A stretch of DNA of 10,324 nucleotides from Planctomycetota bacterium (GTDB lineage: Bacteria > Planctomycetota > UBA11346): contig JBBQSO010000132.1 of assembly GCA_038213805.1 (NCBI GenBank), positions 1 to 10,324 on the forward strand. The letters run 5' to 3'. The notes under the pieces were generated by a model. The model searched no databases. It saw nothing but the letters and a program-made list of their open reading frames with translations, and was not told the origin of the DNA. The stretch's first letter is position 1. Every line of letters starts with the position of its first letter. Both the position numbers and the translations under genes were made by a program. Positions 3,279 to 10,324 of the stretch are shown here, piece by piece.

Positions 3279-5939
3279 ATGCGCACCGTCGCCGTCCTCG
3301 CGCTGCTCGCCTCCGCCGCCGCCGTTTGCGCGTCCGATGCGCTGCCGGACTTCCGCTTCCGCGTCGAGACGCTGTTCGAGAACATTCCTCAGCCGATGGA
3401 GTTGAAGCTCGCTCCCGACGGCCGGCTGTTCTTCAACGAGTACGGCGGCAAGCTGAAGATCTATCATCCGGATACGCGTCAGATCGTCGAGGCCGGGCAG
3501 CTCGACGTCTTCACCGATCAGGAGAACGGCTTCCTCGGCTTCGCGCTCGATCCCAAGTTCACCGAGAACGGTTACATCTACTGCCTGCACTCGCCCAAGG
3601 GCTTCGAGGGCCAGTACCTCAGCCGCTTCGTGATGCACGGCGACACCCTCGACGTGGCGTCGGCGAAGCTGGTGTTGTCCTTCCCGGAGCAGCGCAAGGA
3701 GTGCTGCCACCACGCCGGCTCGATGGCGTTCGCGCCGGACGGCTGCCTGCTGTTCACGGCCGGTGACAACACCGATCCGTTCAACGACTCGAACGGCTAC
3801 GCGCCGCTCGACCAGCGCGCGGGGCGCGAGCCGTGGGACGGCGCACGCAGCGCGGGCAACACCGACAGCTTCAACGGCAAGATCCTGCGCATCCGACCGA
3901 CGCCGGATGGCGGCTACGAGATCCCGCCGGGCAACCTGTTCCCCAAGGGCACGCCGAAGACCAGGCCCGAGATCTTCGTGATGGGTTGCCGCAACCCGTG
4001 GCGCATGACCGTCGACGCCGCCACCGGCTTCGTCTACTGGGGCGAGGTCGGTCCCGATGCCGGCGATGACGGCCCGCGCGGCTCGCGCGGTTACGACGAG
4101 ATCAACCAAGCGCGCAAGGCCGGCAACTTCGGCTGGCCGTTCTTCGTCGGCAACAACTTCACCTACACCGCCTACGACTACGCCACCAAGGAGTTCGGCA
4201 AGCCCTTCGATCCGGCACACCCGATCAACGCCAGCGTCAACAACACCGGCCTGCGCGAGCTGCCACCGGCGCAGCCGGCGATGATCTGGTGGCCCTACCG
4301 CAAGCCGGTCGACTTCCCCGAACTGGGCGAGGGCGGCCGCACCGCCTGCGCCGGGCCGGTCTTCCACTACCAGCCGTCCTTCGAGAAGAGCAACGGCTTC
4401 CCCAAGGAGTTCGACGGCTGCCTGCTGTTCTGGGACTGGCAGCGCCCCTTCATCCGCTGGGCGCGGCTGGACAAGGCCGGCGACTTCCATGGCACCGAGC
4501 CTTTCACCGGCGCCATCGTCACCGGCAACCAGGCCGACCAGTTCGAGCGGCTGAAGCCGGCCATCGCCGCCGGCGCGACCCTGATCCAGCGCCCGATCGA
4601 CGCGGTGTTCGCGCAGGACGGCGCGCTCTACGTGCTCGACTACGGCGAGACCTGGGGCGCCAACGCCGACGCCAAGGTGGTGCGCATCACCTATGTGCGC
4701 GGCAACCTGGCGCCGGTGGCGAAGGCCGCCGCCGAGCCGGCCGCGGGCAAGGAGCCGCTGAAGGTCACGCTGAGCAGCGCCGGTTCGAAGGACTTCGAAG
4801 GCGCGGCCTTGACGTATGAGTGGCGCCTGAAGTCCGGCGGACCGGTGGTGTCCACCGCCGCCAATCCCGAGATCGCCATCGCCGAGCCCGGCAACTACCG
4901 CGTCGAACTGCGAGTCAGCGATCCTGAGGGCGCGGTCGGCACCGCCAGCGTCGCGGTGGTGGTCGGCAACACCGCACCGCAGGTCGCGTTCGCCAAGCCG
5001 CAGGACGGCGACTTCTACACCCCGGGCAAGGCCATCCCGTACGCCGTCACCGTCACCGACGCCGAGGACGGCTCCTCCGTGGACAAGCCCGGCGACTTCG
5101 CCCTGCGCACGCTGGTCAGCAGCACCTTCCTGCACGCCGACGGCAAGGTCACCGCGGGCGATCCCGGCTTCGCCATGGTCAAGTCCTCGGACTGCTTCAA
5201 CTGCCACGCCATCGAGACCAAGGTCATCGGCCCGGCCTTCGTCGACGTCGCCACCAAGTACCGCGGCCAGCCCGGCGCCCTCGAGGCAACGGTGCAGCGC
5301 GTGCGCAATGGCAGCAGCAAGGTGTGGGGCGAGATCCCGATGCTGGCGCACCCGCAGCACACCGTCGACGAACTCGCGATCATGGTGCGCTGGGTCTACT
5401 CGTTGGAGAAGGGTAAGGGCGGCCCGTCATTGGCCCGCGGCCTGAGCGGCCAGGTGACCGCGCCCAAGGACGATCATGCCGGCACTTTCCGCCTGGAAGC
5501 CACCGCCACCGACGCCGGCCACGGCGTCGCGACCGCGCTCAGCGGCCGCGCCACCGTGACGCTGCATTCGCGGCGCGCTGAAGCCGAGTTCGCCGAACTG
5601 CACGGGCCGAAGGTGCTGGGCACCTTCCTCGGCGCCATCGACCACGGCCACACTGCGATCTTCCCCACCGTCAACCTCGCCGAGGTCGGTTCTATCACCG
5701 CGCGCGTCACCTCGCCGCGCGCCGGCGCCAGCGTCGAATTCCACGCCGGCACGGCGAATGGCCCCCTGATCGCGACCGTCACCGTCCCCAACACCGGCGG
5801 CTGGGACAAGTGGGTCGAGCAAAAGACCGAGCTGGCGCCAAGTGCGCCGCGCACGCGCAGCGCGGTGGTCGCGGTATTCGTCTTCCCCGGCCAGACCGGG
5901 ATCATGAACCTGGACTGGGTGCAGTTCGACGCGAAGTGA
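3279..5939 (+). CDS. Secreted modular protein, 886 aa: signal peptide + glucose/sorbosone dehydrogenase (sGDH/YliI-like) beta-propeller + PKD + Ig-like domain with class I cytochrome c + CBM6-like domain
   Basis: Signal peptide MRTVAVLALLASAAAVCA. Propeller motifs ENGFLGFALDPKF, GKILRI, GCRNPWR, DEINQARKAGNFGWP, DGALYVLDYG (about 3350-4700). PKD motifs PLKVTLSSAGSKD..LTYEW..PGNYRVELRVSD (about 4704-4965). Heme motif CFNCH at 5193-5207 with IGPAF and WGEIPM (Met at 5340). CBM6-like EAE..VPNTGGWDKW..MNLDWVQF (about 5574-5936). Confidence 0.9.
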   Translation: MRTVAVLALLASAAAVCASDALPDFRFRVETLFENIPQPMELKLAPDGRLFFNEYGGKLKIYHPDTRQIVEAGQLDVFTDQENGFLGFALDPKFTENGYIYCLHSPKGFEGQYLSRFVMHGDTLDVASAKLVLSFPEQRKECCHHAGSMAFAPDGCLLFTAGDNTDPFNDSNGYAPLDQRAGREPWDGARSAGNTDSFNGKILRIRPTPDGGYEIPPGNLFPKGTPKTRPEIFVMGCRNPWRMTVDAATGFVYWGEVGPDAGDDGPRGSRGYDEINQARKAGNFGWPFFVGNNFTYTAYDYATKEFGKPFDPAHPINASVNNTGLRELPPAQPAMIWWPYRKPVDFPELGEGGRTACAGPVFHYQPSFEKSNGFPKEFDGCLLFWDWQRPFIRWARLDKAGDFHGTEPFTGAIVTGNQADQFERLKPAIAAGATLIQRPIDAVFAQDGALYVLDYGETWGANADAKVVRITYVRGNLAPVAKAAAEPAAGKEPLKVTLSSAGSKDFEGAALTYEWRLKSGGPVVSTAANPEIAIAEPGNYRVELRVSDPEGAVGTASVAVVVGNTAPQVAFAKPQDGDFYTPGKAIPYAVTVTDAEDGSSVDKPGDFALRTLVSSTFLHADGKVTAGDPGFAMVKSSDCFNCHAIETKVIGPAFVDVATKYRGQPGALEATVQRVRNGSSKVWGEIPMLAHPQHTVDELAIMVRWVYSLEKGKGGPSLARGLSGQVTAPKDDHAGTFRLEATATDAGHGVATALSGRATVTLHSRRAEAEFAELHGPKVLGTFLGAIDHGHTAIFPTVNLAEVGSITARVTSPRAGASVEFHAGTANGPLIATVTVPNTGGWDKWVEQKTELAPSAPRTRSAVVAVFVFPGQTGIMNLDWVQFDAK

Positions 5940-6045: not shown

Positions 6046-7191
6046 CTACTCCGCGATGAAGCCCTTCTTGGCGGCCTCATCGGCGATCGCTGTGCGCATC
6101 GCATCGCCCAGGGTCTTCTCGCCGCCCGCCTGCGCGAGCTTGCGCTCCTCGGCCGCGACGAAGGCGGCGCGCGCGACGGCCAGCGCCGCGATCTCGGTCT
6201 GCACGGCCTTGCGCTCCGCCGCCTTGGCGGCGACGGCCGCCTTCAGGCCCTCCGCGTCCAGACCGCGCAATTCCGCGGGCAGTTCATCCTTGGCCACCTT
6301 GGCGAGATCGACCTTGTTCTCCGCGACCGCATCGACCAGGTCCCATGCGGCGTTGCGGTAGCCGGCACCGGCCTTGCACGCGGTGCGCGCGGCTGCGGCG
6401 GAAGGCGCCAGCGAACTGGCGTTACTGTCCTGGTCGGCCTGGCGCTGCGCCATCTCCTTGCGCTCGGCGCCATAGGTGACGTAGGTGCCGTTCAGCGCCT
6501 GGTTCAGCTCCGCCAGGCGGGCGTCCTGGGGCGCGGCGATCTGCGCCTCGGCCTTGTTCTGGTCGATGCAGATGTAGGTGCCCTCGCCAAGGCGCGCGCC
6601 GACGTCCCACTCGCCGGTGATGCCTTCCTGCACCGATCCGCAGTGGATGGTGTTGATCTGGATGCCGTGCGAGACCGCCTCGGAACAGGCGATGCGGAAA
6701 CCGAACTGACCCTGGCTGAAGGGCTCGTTGCCGGCGATGAAGATCAGCTTGAGGTCCTGCGGCCGCGCGCTCCACGCCAGCTGCGTGACCGCGTTGTGGA
6801 TGACCTGCCCGCAGTACTCATCACCACCGCCGCCATTGATGGCGAACAGCTGCGCCGACACCGCGTCCAGGTCGTCGCTGAGCGGGATCAGCGGCTGGGT
6901 CAGGAACGGCGCGTCCCCGTAATGGTAGAGCGCGACCTGCAGCTGCGGCCGCACGCCGTTCCGGCGCGTCGCGACCAGCTGGTTGACCACCGACCACAGG
7001 TGCGCGCGCGCCTGGTTGATCAATCCCGACATGCTGCCCGAATCGTCAAGCAGGATGGCGACCTGGATGAGCGGCGGCGCCTCCGCGGGCGCGAGCGGGA
7101 CGCGCGCGGGCGCGTCGGCGGCGGTCAACGCGCCACTGAGGCAGGCGAGCGCGAGACAAGGGAGGGAGAGCAGCGTGGGGATCAGGCGCAT
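6046..7191 (-). CDS. Secreted von Willebrand factor A (vWA) domain protein with helical C-terminal region, 381 aa
   Basis: Signal peptide MRLIPTLLSLPCLALACLSGALTA; MIDAS start IQVAILLDDSGSM (DxSxS); later vWA strands VALYHYG, GGGDE, LIFIAGNEP, INTIHCG; Ala/Glu/Lys-rich helical tail. GGAG RBS upstream of the ATG. Confidence 0.9.
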   Translation of the reverse strand: MRLIPTLLSLPCLALACLSGALTAADAPARVPLAPAEAPPLIQVAILLDDSGSMSGLINQARAHLWSVVNQLVATRRNGVRPQLQVALYHYGDAPFLTQPLIPLSDDLDAVSAQLFAINGGGGDEYCGQVIHNAVTQLAWSARPQDLKLIFIAGNEPFSQGQFGFRIACSEAVSHGIQINTIHCGSVQEGITGEWDVGARLGEGTYICIDQNKAEAQIAAPQDARLAELNQALNGTYVTYGAERKEMAQRQADQDSNASSLAPSAAAARTACKAGAGYRNAAWDLVDAVAENKVDLAKVAKDELPAELRGLDAEGLKAAVAAKAAERKAVQTEIAALAVARAAFVAAEERKLAQAGGEKTLGDAMRTAIADEAAKKGFIAE

Positions 7192-7276
7192 GGGTGGGCT
7201 CCGTGGCGGGTGGTGGGGCCGGGCGCGGCGGCGCGCGGTCCTGGTAGGGATCTAACGTCCGCGCCGGCACGCGGGT

Positions 7277-7292
7277 GTAACTGCTTGGTAAC
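7277..7292 (-). promoter_or_regulatory. Candidate OmpR/PhoB-type tandem binding site (GTTAC-N6-GTTAC on the minus strand)
   Basis: GTAAC at 7277-7281 and 7288-7292, an 11-bp period, in an AT-enriched patch of the divergent vWA/kinase intergenic region. The motif is short, so chance is not excluded. Confidence 0.3.
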
Positions 7293-7486
7293 CGCGGCAG
7301 GGATCCGACCGCTGGGCCGTGGGCGACCTGGTCGTCACCGTGCCTGGCGACGGCGATCCCCTGGATCCGCAACCGACGTGCGCCGCGCGCAGCGGTGTAT
7401 TGAAACCGCCGCTTACCCAGTGACAGCCCTGTCGGCACTCCCACGATCCTCCACATGGCGACCCCCAGCCGCGGCAGTGACAGTCC

Positions 7487-10156
7487 ATGAGCCCGGCGGA
7501 CGGTGATGATCCATCTCCGCCGACTTCCATCGGCGCTTACCGCATCATCGGCCATCTCGGCAAGGGCGGCATGGCGCAGGTCTATCGCGCCGAGCACCGC
7601 ACGCTGAAGCGCGCGGTCGCGCTCAAGGTCGTGCTGCCCGACTACGCCGACGATCCCGCCTTCCGCGCCCGCTTCCTGGCGGAGGCCCAGGCCTCCGCCA
7701 GCCTCGCGCACGCCAACGTCATCACCTGCTACGACGCGGGTGAGGACGATGGCCACCTGTTCATGGCCCTGGAGCTGGTCGAGGGCGGCGACCTGATGGC
7801 CATGACGGAACGGCGCGGCGGCCGGCTCGACGAGGGCGAGGTCCTGGCGTTCGCCCACGACTGCCTCGCCGGCATCGGCGCCATCGCCGCGGCCGGTCTG
7901 GTGCACCGCGACATCAAGCCCGCCAACATCTTCGTCACCGCGACCGGGCAGGCGAAGATCGCCGATCTCGGCCTCGCGCGCCAGCTGCGCGTGGCCACCT
8001 CGACGGCCGCCGGCAAAGAGGCGAGCATCATGGGCACGCCCTGCTACATGTCGCCCGAACAGATCCACTGCCTGCCCGACCTCGACGTCCGCACCGACCT
8101 CTACGCCCTGGGCGCGTCGCTGGTGCACCTGCTCACCGGCGCGCCCCTCCACGCCGGCGCCGATCCCCTCGCCACCCTGGCGATGACGCTGAGCGCGCCC
8201 TTCCCCGACCTGCGCAGCCGGCGCAGCGACCTCTCCAGCGGGGTCTGCGCGATCCTGCAGCGACTCCTCGCCCGTGACCGTGACCAGCGCTATCGCAGCG
8301 CCGAGGAGGCGCGCGAGGACGTCGGCCGTGCGTTGTCGGACGCGGCCCCGCGCCATGCGCCGCGCCATGGCGAGCGCGGGGGCACGTCCAGGATCGCGCC
8401 GCAGACCACCCGGGCATTCAGCGCGGACGGGCCGCAGCGGCCGATCTCCGACGACACCATGCGCCACGCCGCCACGGTCGACGGCATCGATAGCGCACGC
8501 CTCGCCGCGCTCGCCAAGCGCGTCATCGTCGACCGGCGCGGGCTGACCGCGGCGATCAGCCTCGCGGCCAACGCCTGCTTCCCACCGCTGCTGATCGAGC
8601 GCATGATCTCCGCTGCGGGCATCCGCTTCGGCCTTGACCCGGACGGCATCGCCGAAGCCACGTGCGCGGCGGCAGTGCCGCGGCGCATCGTCATCGCGCG
8701 CGGCGACGCCCCAGGGCCCGGCAGCAGCGGCAAATCGGTCCGCGGCGAGGTCATGCCGCCGCTGGTCGAACCCTTCCACATCCACGTCCACGAGGACGCC
8801 ATGGTGGCGGTGGCGACCAGCGGCGGGCAGCAGGCCATCACGGTGCCGGACCTGCAGCGCGCCGTGCGCGAGCGCGAGCTGCGCTTCGGGCTCGATACGG
8901 CGGCTCTCCAGCGGCTGATCACCGGGCCGCTGGCACCCGGGGAACGCATCATCATCGCGCGCGGCACGCCCGCCGTGCCCGGCATCGCTGCAGGCTTCCA
9001 TCTCGCCCACGCCGCGACCGCGCACGCCGCGAACGGTGCGCCACCGGACGGGGTTATTTCCAACTACGCCCGCGTCGCGGCCGGAACCCGGCTCGCCCGC
9101 TGGTCGCCCGGTCGACAGGGGCAGGCGGGCATGGATGTCCACGGCCGCGCGCTGCCGGTGGTCGCATTGGCGACGCGCAGCGCGGCCGCGTGCGCCGGCG
9201 AAGGCACCCTGCTGCACACGGATGCCGCCGGCGACGCGCTGGTCGCCGCGCGCGACGGTGTGGTGCAGGAATGCGCCGACGGCACCGTGCGCGTCATCAC
9301 CGCCATCGAGATCGCCGGCGACCTCGGCCCCGGGCACGCCCCGGTGCGCGCCACCGGGCTGGTGCTGGTACGTGGCGATGTCCTGGCGGGCGCCGTGATC
9401 TCATCCACCGAGGACGTGGTGGTCCTCGGCAGCCTCGGTGACGCCGCGGTCACCGCCGGCGGCGACCTGGTGGTCGCCGGTACCATCGCCAACGGCGTGC
9501 AGCCAGTGCTGGCCGGAGGCGAGCTGGTCGCGAGCGGCATCGGCGCGCGCCGCGTGCTGGCGGGGGCGGTACGCATCGGCGGGACGTCGGAGCACAGCCA
9601 GGTCGCCGCCAACGGCGACATCCAGGTGCGCCGGGTGCGCGGCGGCCGCCTGGTCTGCGGCGGCAGCATCACCGCCGAGATCGCCGGCGATGCCACCGGC
9701 ACCGCCACTGAACTGTGGGCTGGTCAAGGTCTCGGCTTGGAGCAGCACCAGGAGCTGGTGCGCGTCGTCAGCGCGCGCCACGCCGCCGCCCGCGAACGGC
9801 TGCTCGCCGAATCCAAGGCGCTCAAAGCCGAGATCGATGATGCCATGCTGGCCGACAGGCGACTCGAAGGCACGCACTTTATCCGCCGCGACGTGCTGGT
9901 CGAGCGCCAGGCGAGGCTCCGCCTGATGACCGGCCATCTCGACAGCCTGCGCCGCGCCGCCGAAGACGTCCGGCAGCGCGTGGAAAGCGACCGCACGACG
10001 CTGGACCGCGCGCCCGGTGCGCCCACGCCGGTGGATCCGAACGCCGCGATCCGCATCGCCCAGCTGGCGCACGACGGGGTGAGCGTGCGCATCGCCGACA
10101 ATGATGCCGAGACGTTGGTGATGCCGCAGGGGATGCTGGTTATCGGGGGGACGTAA
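7487..10156 (+). CDS. Hanks-type Ser/Thr protein kinase fused to a FapA/DUF342-like module, 889 aa, predicted cytoplasmic
   Basis: Kinase about 7538-8335: LGKGGMAQVY, VALK, RFLAE, HRDIKPAN (7904), DLG (7964-7972), GTPCYMSPE, DLYALG. From about 8519: two GIRFGLD/ELRFGLD...IARG units, VAAGTRLAR..PGRQGQAGMDVHGRALP, GEGT..LVAARDG, a Gly/Val-rich beta-solenoid (IAGDL..GLVLVRGDV..DVVVLG..AGGDLVVAG), a coiled coil and terminal AIRIAQLAHDGVSVRI. This is the order of elements I recall for DUF342/FapA. Confidence 0.85.
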   Translation: MSPADGDDPSPPTSIGAYRIIGHLGKGGMAQVYRAEHRTLKRAVALKVVLPDYADDPAFRARFLAEAQASASLAHANVITCYDAGEDDGHLFMALELVEGGDLMAMTERRGGRLDEGEVLAFAHDCLAGIGAIAAAGLVHRDIKPANIFVTATGQAKIADLGLARQLRVATSTAAGKEASIMGTPCYMSPEQIHCLPDLDVRTDLYALGASLVHLLTGAPLHAGADPLATLAMTLSAPFPDLRSRRSDLSSGVCAILQRLLARDRDQRYRSAEEAREDVGRALSDAAPRHAPRHGERGGTSRIAPQTTRAFSADGPQRPISDDTMRHAATVDGIDSARLAALAKRVIVDRRGLTAAISLAANACFPPLLIERMISAAGIRFGLDPDGIAEATCAAAVPRRIVIARGDAPGPGSSGKSVRGEVMPPLVEPFHIHVHEDAMVAVATSGGQQAITVPDLQRAVRERELRFGLDTAALQRLITGPLAPGERIIIARGTPAVPGIAAGFHLAHAATAHAANGAPPDGVISNYARVAAGTRLARWSPGRQGQAGMDVHGRALPVVALATRSAAACAGEGTLLHTDAAGDALVAARDGVVQECADGTVRVITAIEIAGDLGPGHAPVRATGLVLVRGDVLAGAVISSTEDVVVLGSLGDAAVTAGGDLVVAGTIANGVQPVLAGGELVASGIGARRVLAGAVRIGGTSEHSQVAANGDIQVRRVRGGRLVCGGSITAEIAGDATGTATELWAGQGLGLEQHQELVRVVSARHAAARERLLAESKALKAEIDDAMLADRRLEGTHFIRRDVLVERQARLRLMTGHLDSLRRAAEDVRQRVESDRTTLDRAPGAPTPVDPNAAIRIAQLAHDGVSVRIADNDAETLVMPQGMLVIGGT
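8519..8995 (+). repeat. Two tandem protein-level repeats of about 86-87 aa (FapA N-terminal-type units)
   Basis: RFGLD starts at 8624 and 8882; RI(V/I)IARG is encoded by cgcatcgtcatcgcgcgcggc (8684-8704) and cgcatcatcatcgcgcgcggc (8945-8965), 20/21 identical. Confidence 0.75.
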
Positions 10157-10190
10157 ACTGGATGCCGATTGGCGGAATCAAAAAGCGCCC

Positions 10191-10206
10191 TCAGCGACAT
10201 CGCTGA
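10191..10206. other. Perfect 7-bp inverted repeat downstream of the kinase-FapA gene (weak terminator hairpin or operator)
   Basis: TCAGCGA-ca-TCGCTGA, 35 nt after the TAA at 10156; followed by TCCTT, not a real U-tract. Confidence 0.3.
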
Positions 10207-10324
10207 TCCTTGCGCGGCAGCTCCGGCAGGTGCCGATCTCGATGGGCCAGTGGCCACATTCCGCGAGACCTGCCTCCCGACAGGCGCAACCGCACCTGGG
10301 AGCGCCCAGCCCCCGCACCGCGGG

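Follow-up and report, generated by a model that had tools for sequence, protein, structure and literature searches.

FapA (DUF342) has been classed as a flagellar regulator in a co-presence study (PMC13277936), and two 2026 preprints describe members of the family in Borrelia and Helicobacter. According to the first of these, FapA of Borrelia burgdorferi (BB0267) is built of three ferredoxin-like domains, a β-sandwich and a triangular β-solenoid that bears a coiled coil of two helices; these last two elements, together termed D5, bind all five MotA subunits and mask the FliG interface, deletion of fapA reduces swimming speed and reversal frequency, and the protein is presented as a stator clutch (10.64898/2026.10.14.759253). 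In the second, Helicobacter pylori FapA is described as extending the motor cage into the cytoplasm; the protein is found at the pole, binds PilM of the cage and holds back migration in soft agar. For Vibrio vulnificus FapA and EIIA-Glc this preprint refers to Park et al. 2016 and 2019, and the seven phyla with FapA in its abstract do not include Planctomycetota (10.64898/2026.10.23.761471). Here we describe a gene, P0001, which occupies positions 7487..10156 of the forward strand in a 10,324-nt stretch of DNA from a Planctomycetota bacterium (assembly GCA_038213805.1, contig JBBQSO010000132.1; the whole stretch is referred to below as the window) and which encodes a Hanks-type Ser/Thr kinase, a linker and a FapA-family module in one polypeptide. 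None of the studied FapA proteins has such an N-terminal kinase and linker. Outside the link to the phosphotransferase system (PTS) in Vibrio we know of no input that makes FapA bind or release. Both families were already known, and what is new here is that the kinase is joined to FapA. A preliminary description of the window, made from its sequence, had taken this fusion to be uncharacterised, and our literature search for a kinase-FapA (DUF342) fusion likewise found no paper; the architecture has previously appeared in automatic annotation only, one JGI record naming a homologue 'serine/threonine protein kinase/uncharacterized protein (DUF342 family)'.

P0001 is a single open reading frame (ORF) of 889 codons plus the stop codon, and its start agrees with that of the homologue P0004, which is 80% identical and likewise 889 amino acids long. 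The window has a G+C content of 71%, at which real genes are told by their third-position G+C (GC3); from position 7501 to its end P0001 has a GC3 of 0.85-0.96 in each block of 300 nt, with the G+C of the second position (GC2) lowest everywhere. The encoded protein is composed of the following parts, for which the structural assignments are taken from AlphaFold2 (AF2) models and their predicted local distance difference test (pLDDT) scores:

7538..8305, + strand: Hanks-type Ser/Thr kinase domain, residues 18-273 (Pfam Pkinase, motifs, Foldseek)
8366..8479, + strand: linker rich in Ser, Thr and Pro, predicted to be disordered, residues 294-331 (pLDDT below 50)
8489..8761, + strand: first α+β domain of the FapA module, residues ~335-425, outside Pfam coverage (AF2, pLDDT 83-91; conserved in the family)
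8777..9268, + strand: FapA_N region, residues 431-594, comprising the second α+β domain and a β-rich domain (Pfam PF20250, AF2)
9305..9760, + strand: FapA β-solenoid, Pfam residues 607-758, model strands 620-745 (Pfam PF03961; AF2 pLDDT 92-95)
9737..10006, + strand: two-helix antiparallel coiled-coil hairpin, residues 751-840 (AF2 helices 751-794 and 801-840)
10046..10147, + strand: small C-terminal β domain, residues 854-887 (AF2 strands 854-861, 865-869 and 881-887)

The N-terminal part of P0001 is recognized by the Pfam Pkinase profile (PF00069; residues 18-273, E 1e-42, 146.8 bits against a cut-off of 31.7). Kinases of this kind are marked by a G-loop, the VAIK lysine, the αC glutamate, the HRD aspartate, an asparagine, the DFG aspartate and the APE motif, and the set is complete in P0001 (LGKGGMAQV G-loop, VALK with Lys47, αC Glu66, HRD 140-142, Asn147, DLG 160-162 and SPE 189-191), from which the kinase is predicted to be catalytically competent. 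The full-length AF2 model shows a bilobal kinase fold that Foldseek aligns with the kinase domains of PknA and PknB in the Protein Data Bank (PDB) with an E-value of 3e-22 and a target-normalised TM-score of 0.85-0.92, at a sequence identity of 30-34%. P0001 further resembles these PknB/PknA-type kinases in that Ser, Thr and Pro abound in the region following the kinase, but differs from them in lacking both a transmembrane helix and PASTA domains; in addition, the canonical DFG is replaced by DLG in 22 of the 25 active members of the family. A signal peptide is not evident, Pfam and NCBIfam give no PASTA match, and no membrane segment is apparent from hydropathy, the highest Kyte-Doolittle mean over 19 residues (1.62) falling within kinase helix αE, so that P0001 is predicted to be a soluble protein. 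Assignment to the PASTA kinases (PknB/Stk1, NF033483) was rejected, since NCBIfam PknB_PASTA_kin scores 250 bits against a cut-off of 450, matches the kinase part only and is accompanied by neither a PASTA hit nor a hydrophobic segment.

The C-terminal part is recognized by two Pfam profiles, FapA_N (PF20250; residues 431-594, E 3.8e-18, 65.9 bits against a cut-off of 27) and the FapA β-solenoid (PF03961; residues 607-758, E 4.1e-18, 66.4 bits against a cut-off of 31). AF2 modelled the full-length protein with a mean pLDDT of 83.6 and a predicted TM-score (pTM) of 0.55 from a family alignment of 33 rows, and the C-terminal 560 amino acids alone with a pLDDT of 92.2 and a pTM of 0.78 from an alignment of 60 rows. 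The predicted order of parts is kinase (~14-290), linker (294-331), two α+β domains (~335-425 and 430-510), a β-rich domain (535-610), solenoid (620-745), hairpin (751-840) and β domain (854-887), and the helices of the hairpin recur in the C-terminal model at 422-465 and 472-512 of that model's own numbering. The sequence observations of the preliminary description are confirmed: one uninterrupted ORF with every kinase motif, a Ser/Thr-containing linker, a C-terminal match to DUF342 composed of repeats, solenoid, coiled coil and a terminal β segment, and neither signal peptide, transmembrane helix nor PASTA domain were all found again here. The linker is the variable element of the protein. 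The span between residues 285 and 345 of P0001 corresponds to 40-188 amino acids of variable sequence in its relatives, is rich in Pro, Ser and Thr among the active-kinase members, and has the motif RPISDDTMRH in common with the closest relatives only.

Both profile matches place P0001 with the studied FapA/DUF342 proteins (V. vulnificus FapA, B. burgdorferi BB0267 and H. pylori HPG27_837), and the predicted succession of α+β domains, a β-rich domain, a triangular-type solenoid, a two-helix coiled coil and a small β domain is that given in the text descriptions of the two preprints. Different from the studied proteins, however, P0001 belongs to a divergent Planctomycetota clade and is found without a flagellar operon context. 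A solved FapA structure was not found by profile search of the PDB sequences, in which only the C-terminal solenoid of MinC was matched (a stretch of 44 residues, E 1.9e-4), and a Foldseek search of the PDB with the C-terminal model returned no matches at E<=1e-3, the best partial ones being the MacA hairpin and MinC (the latter at rank 14, E 0.92). The likeness of P0001 to MinC is limited to fold or repeat: the N-terminal domain of MinC is missing, a MinC_C Pfam match is absent at E<=0.01, and P0001 was rejected as a MinC protein, which would require both MinC domains, on the ground that the solenoid stretch alone matches.

The fusion is not peculiar to the window. A word-index search with residues 330-889 of P0001 returned 10 homologues of 35-80% identity, all ten of which combine Pkinase, FapA_N and FapA. 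An exhaustive phmmer search with the same query in 1.84 billion representatives (50% clustering) gave 3359 matches at E<=1e-3, 49 of them at E<=1e-30. Among these 49 are 18 full-length proteins (844-990 amino acids) and 2 truncated ones with HRD, 8 proteins of 845-897 amino acids without HRD, 7 of 550-640 and 14 of fewer than 550 amino acids; Pfam confirmed the architecture in the 41 proteins that were scanned. Finally, a scan of one genome per species in 185,579 species with a four-row alignment of the FapA part gave 34 loci, of which L001-L022 all lie in metagenome-assembled genomes (MAGs) of Planctomycetota, whereas L023-L034 are ordinary DUF342 genes, mainly of Bacillota and Fibrobacterota, with one locus unclassified. 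Wherever the 5' side of a Planctomycetota locus is present on the contig, as it is in 18 loci, a single ORF encodes both kinase and FapA (18 of 18), L002, L003, L004 and L022 being cut by contig ends and left out of this count. Two tandem copies of the kinase-FapA gene are present in L019 (6290-8914 and 8990-11665), and the contigs of L002 and L022, which belong to one MAG, carry two divergent paralogues 89% and 40% identical to P0001. The kinase-FapA architecture is a conserved one, found here only in Planctomycetota and uncharacterised. The protein atlas contains stand-alone FapA clusters with Planctomycetota as the commonest phylum. The taxonomic labels of the loci are at phylum level except for four labelled Brocadiaceae or Kuenenia. 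The genus Kuenenia has a G+C content of about 41%; L014, L015 and L021 are labelled Candidatus Kuenenia and have 68-70% G+C, which makes this label doubtful.

In a FastTree phylogeny of 87 FapA parts, which is midpoint-rooted, carries local supports only and includes several rows of unusual amino-acid composition, 26 active-kinase proteins and 5 fragments form one clade with an SH-like (Shimodaira-Hasegawa-like) support of 96. This clade is nested in a larger one with a support of 100 and a stem length of 0.82 changes per column, which further holds a pseudokinase group (support 99), P0035 and five stand-alone proteins of 560-631 amino acids; the canonical DUF342 proteins lie outside of it. 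Two unusual architectures were also noted outside the kinase clade, P0074 (3620 amino acids) with 7-8 tandem FapA_N+FapA units and P0160 (1182 amino acids), in which Jag_N is combined with FapA matches.

Whereas the G-loop, Lys, Glu, HRD, Asn, DLG/DFG and PE motifs are retained in 25 of 33 aligned family members, the other 8 rows are pseudokinases without G-loop, catalytic Lys, HRD Asp and DFG; they are P0033, P0034, P0037, P0039, P0041, P0043 and P0044 and, apart from these in the tree, P0035. These sister proteins have length, architecture and a supported clade in common with P0001, and hhalign aligns the pseudokinase group with the active group over the whole length (columns 13-867 against 18-889, probability 100). 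They differ from P0001 in the loss of the catalytic elements and in a linker motif of their own, of the form RS..FN..DIQ.HI. Because the sister clade retains the fold without the catalytic residues, the kinase fold probably has a structural role besides catalysis, packing against the FapA module. Complex prediction of the kinase (residues 1-293) with the FapA part (332-889) supports such a role at the level of a model, with a median score of 0.66 and a best control of 0.01; 116 of 157 solved complexes scored at least this high, as did 2 of 215 mismatched pairs, counts that are rough since our own alignment was used. The runs had a contact agreement of at least 0% and a partner pLDDT of at least 78, and one of the three scored 0.00. 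As modelled, the back of the kinase C-lobe (109-125, 153-155, 243-254 and 277-289) would rest on the α+β domains (382-508) and one face of the solenoid, with the active site left free.

The window contains the following genes:

2-466, - strand: MFS transporter, partial
480-1478, - strand: 2-hydroxyacid dehydrogenase
1725-2243, + strand: DUF1569/DinB gene
2254-2925, - strand: GDSL hydrolase
3279-5939, + strand: secreted GSDH-PKD-CBM6 protein with a weak PVC-type haem-binding match
6046-7191, - strand: secreted VWA protein
7487-10156, + strand: the kinase-FapA gene P0001, 889 amino acids

The locus L001, whose kinase-FapA protein is 80% identical, has the 2-hydroxyacid dehydrogenase, DUF1569, GDSL and GSDH genes upstream in common with the window, the partial MFS gene having been left out of this comparison. 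The 886-amino-acid product of 3279-5939 is a secreted protein combining glucose/sorbosone dehydrogenase, PKD and CBM6 domains, 86% identical in L001, with a weak match, below cut-off, to the PVC-type haem-binding CxxCH family; this domain combination is compatible with an origin from Planctomycetota or Verrucomicrobiota. The VWA-domain protein encoded at 6046-7191 has 381 amino acids and a signal peptide, and its gene lies divergently upstream of the kinase gene. It was rejected as a conserved partner, being missing even from L001, where BaxI_1 and SnoaL genes precede the kinase; the slot upstream of the kinase gene thus varies between close relatives, and SucCD or inositol monophosphatase genes are found upstream in a few loci. 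An Arg-rich ORF of 491 amino acids that overlaps the start of P0001 (6031-7506, + strand) was rejected as an antisense shadow of the VWA gene, with the wrong GC3 pattern and no family match. Rfam and tRNA scans of the window and a promoter and terminator scan of 7100-10324 gave no matches.

In L018 the kinase-FapA gene is directly preceded, on the same strand, by genes for a histidine kinase with a PAS domain and a response regulator of a single domain (3585-5463, +), and the three genes may form an operon in that lineage. Other multidomain Hanks kinases lie near loci of the family, one with an FGE-sulfatase domain in L009 (8911-12963, - strand) and one with NHL/SGL in L004 (7754-11344, + strand); Hanks kinases of Planctomycetota fuse freely to many kinds of domain.

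What would such a protein do? We suggest, with a probability of somewhat under one half (about 0.45), that P0001 is brought to MotA stators or to motor proteins of the pole by its FapA module, where the kinase tethered to it would phosphorylate nearby targets or alter the docking of the protein itself. P0001 would then be a soluble Hanks-type kinase tied by a flexible linker of ~40 residues to a FapA-family module, whose solenoid, coiled-coil hairpin and preceding α+β domains would serve as the targeting and scaffold part and, by homology with B. burgdorferi FapA, would attach to MotA stator units at their cytoplasmic base or to proteins associated with the motor at the pole. There the kinase would act locally, phosphorylating motor, pole or chemotaxis proteins, or alternatively it would phosphorylate its own linker or FapA module and thereby alter docking; both possibilities would connect Ser/Thr signalling in Planctomycetota with the assembly of the flagellum or the engagement of its stators. 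That the protein binds to motor or pole, which substrates it has and in which direction control runs we infer, and the flagellar reading is proposed because of the function of FapA in other phyla, as described in the preprints. The preliminary description had offered a localisation scaffold that carries the kinase to its targets, an idea which fits the placement of FapA at motor and pole in these preprints. Its other proposal, that Hanks-type phosphorylation replaces PTS control of FapA, found no support in our analysis. A narrower version of motor docking, which we regard as doubtful, is a stator clutch operated by phosphorylation, in which a FapA module masking the rotor-facing surface of MotA would be hard-wired to a Ser/Thr kinase in Planctomycetota, and local phosphorylation would set whether individual stator units are bound or released.

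As to the flagellar role, which had also been put forward in the preliminary description, genomic context offers a partial argument. L014 encodes FliH, FliG and FliF at a distance of about 2-6 kb and also CheR and CheB, L021 has CheW and CheA directly downstream in convergent orientation, and in L008 CheX lies within 10 kb; therefore at least some carriers have flagellar and chemotaxis genes, but the linkage is weak. Several observations weigh against docking at the motor. Flagellar or chemotaxis genes are found within 10 kb in these 3 of 22 loci and in none of the remaining 19, and the three cases could be no more than chance in a flagellated genome. All-against-all clustering of the neighbouring ORFs gave no neighbour conserved throughout the family; the recurrent ones are convergent housekeeping genes within a sub-clade (UPF0102/YraN in 8 loci, rplS in 5 and lgt in 4), and the neighbours of P0001 in the window, a secreted VWA protein and the GSDH-PKD-CBM6 protein, are unrelated to motility. 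P0001 is moreover predicted to have two N-terminal α+β domains, whereas three are described for B. burgdorferi FapA. Canonical DUF342 proteins of 610-650 amino acids carry ~70 more residues ahead of the aligned region, as judged from phmmer offsets, which is compatible with one additional N-terminal domain that is absent from the fusion; going by the text descriptions, the missing domain may be the anchoring D1. The long branch that separates the clade from canonical FapA (0.82 changes per column) suggests that the binding partner may have changed. Finally, the columns of the modelled interface between kinase and FapA are not better conserved than their own domains (0.51 against 0.63 and 0.53 against 0.57), and because of this lack of enriched conservation the interface stays a model only. 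A flagellar link of the kinase-FapA family is partly supported, not established.

Alternatively, P0001 would be a scaffold kinase with no part in motility, in which the FapA module has been co-opted in Planctomycetota to serve binding, oligomerisation or regulation in a different process of the pole or envelope, such as budding, division or another 5:2 motor of the MotA/ExbB/TolQ type, and the kinase would signal there. This explanation is favoured by the long branch that sets canonical DUF342 apart from the group made up of the fused clade, the pseudokinase sisters and a few stand-alone proteins, and also by the 19 of 22 loci that are free of motility genes nearby, the housekeeping nature of the recurrent neighbours and the many kinds of C-terminal domain borne by Planctomycetota kinases, of which those in L009 and L004 are examples. 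The MinC-like character of the solenoid (E 1.9e-4), together with sub-threshold MinC_C Pfam matches in 4 relatives, points in the same direction. Then again, every FapA protein studied so far is, according to the sources cited above, associated with the flagellum, some carriers place the gene near fliFGH or cheAW, and a positive link to division or envelope genes is seen in none of the loci. We consider a role in a non-flagellar process, the main alternative to docking at motor or pole, somewhat unlikely.

A far smaller chance is given to P0001 being a stand-alone antiphage defence kinase of the PD-T4-6 type. PADLOC models for PD-T4-6 match residues ~12-344 with E-values down to 7.7e-74, and models for mad6, Stk2 and PglW match too. 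However, all these matches lie inside residues 10-350, that is, in the kinase and the adjoining linker, as would be obtained with any Hanks kinase, and the NCBIfam profiles MADS6 and BREX PglW score far below their cut-offs (125 against 460 and 56 against 990). In addition, the C-terminal 560 amino acids are FapA, synteny in the sub-clade is with housekeeping genes, and apart from unrelated single items (TCAD9 in L020) no defence-island context was seen at the loci, the genes around P0001 not being defence genes either, which together render a defence role very improbable. An artefact in which a contig chimera or the loss of a stop codon made one gene out of two is no more than the a priori possibility that attends metagenomic data and is excluded for practical purposes, because the fusion is one ORF in all 18 independent contigs (35-80% identity) and its domains recur in 10 of 10 homologues, and further in view of the 18 full-length HRD-bearing representatives at 50% clustering and of a codon bias that runs uniformly, without a break, through the kinase/FapA junction at 8335-8520, where the preliminary description had asked whether the reads were continuous.

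Only in recent work was FapA located at the flagellar motor, and its fusion to an intact kinase, with a pseudokinase sister group beside it, suggests a regulatory input. Should docking at motor or pole hold for the kinase-FapA proteins, a function could be assigned to one Ser/Thr kinase among the many orphans in Planctomycetota. Co-option of the FapA module for a process other than flagellation would instead show the FapA fold to be a general docking device. And if the phosphorylation-operated stator clutch were true, the pseudokinase sister clade would represent an allosteric, non-catalytic version of the same switch, and a stator clutch under phosphorylation would amount to a control of torque or assembly new to any model organism.

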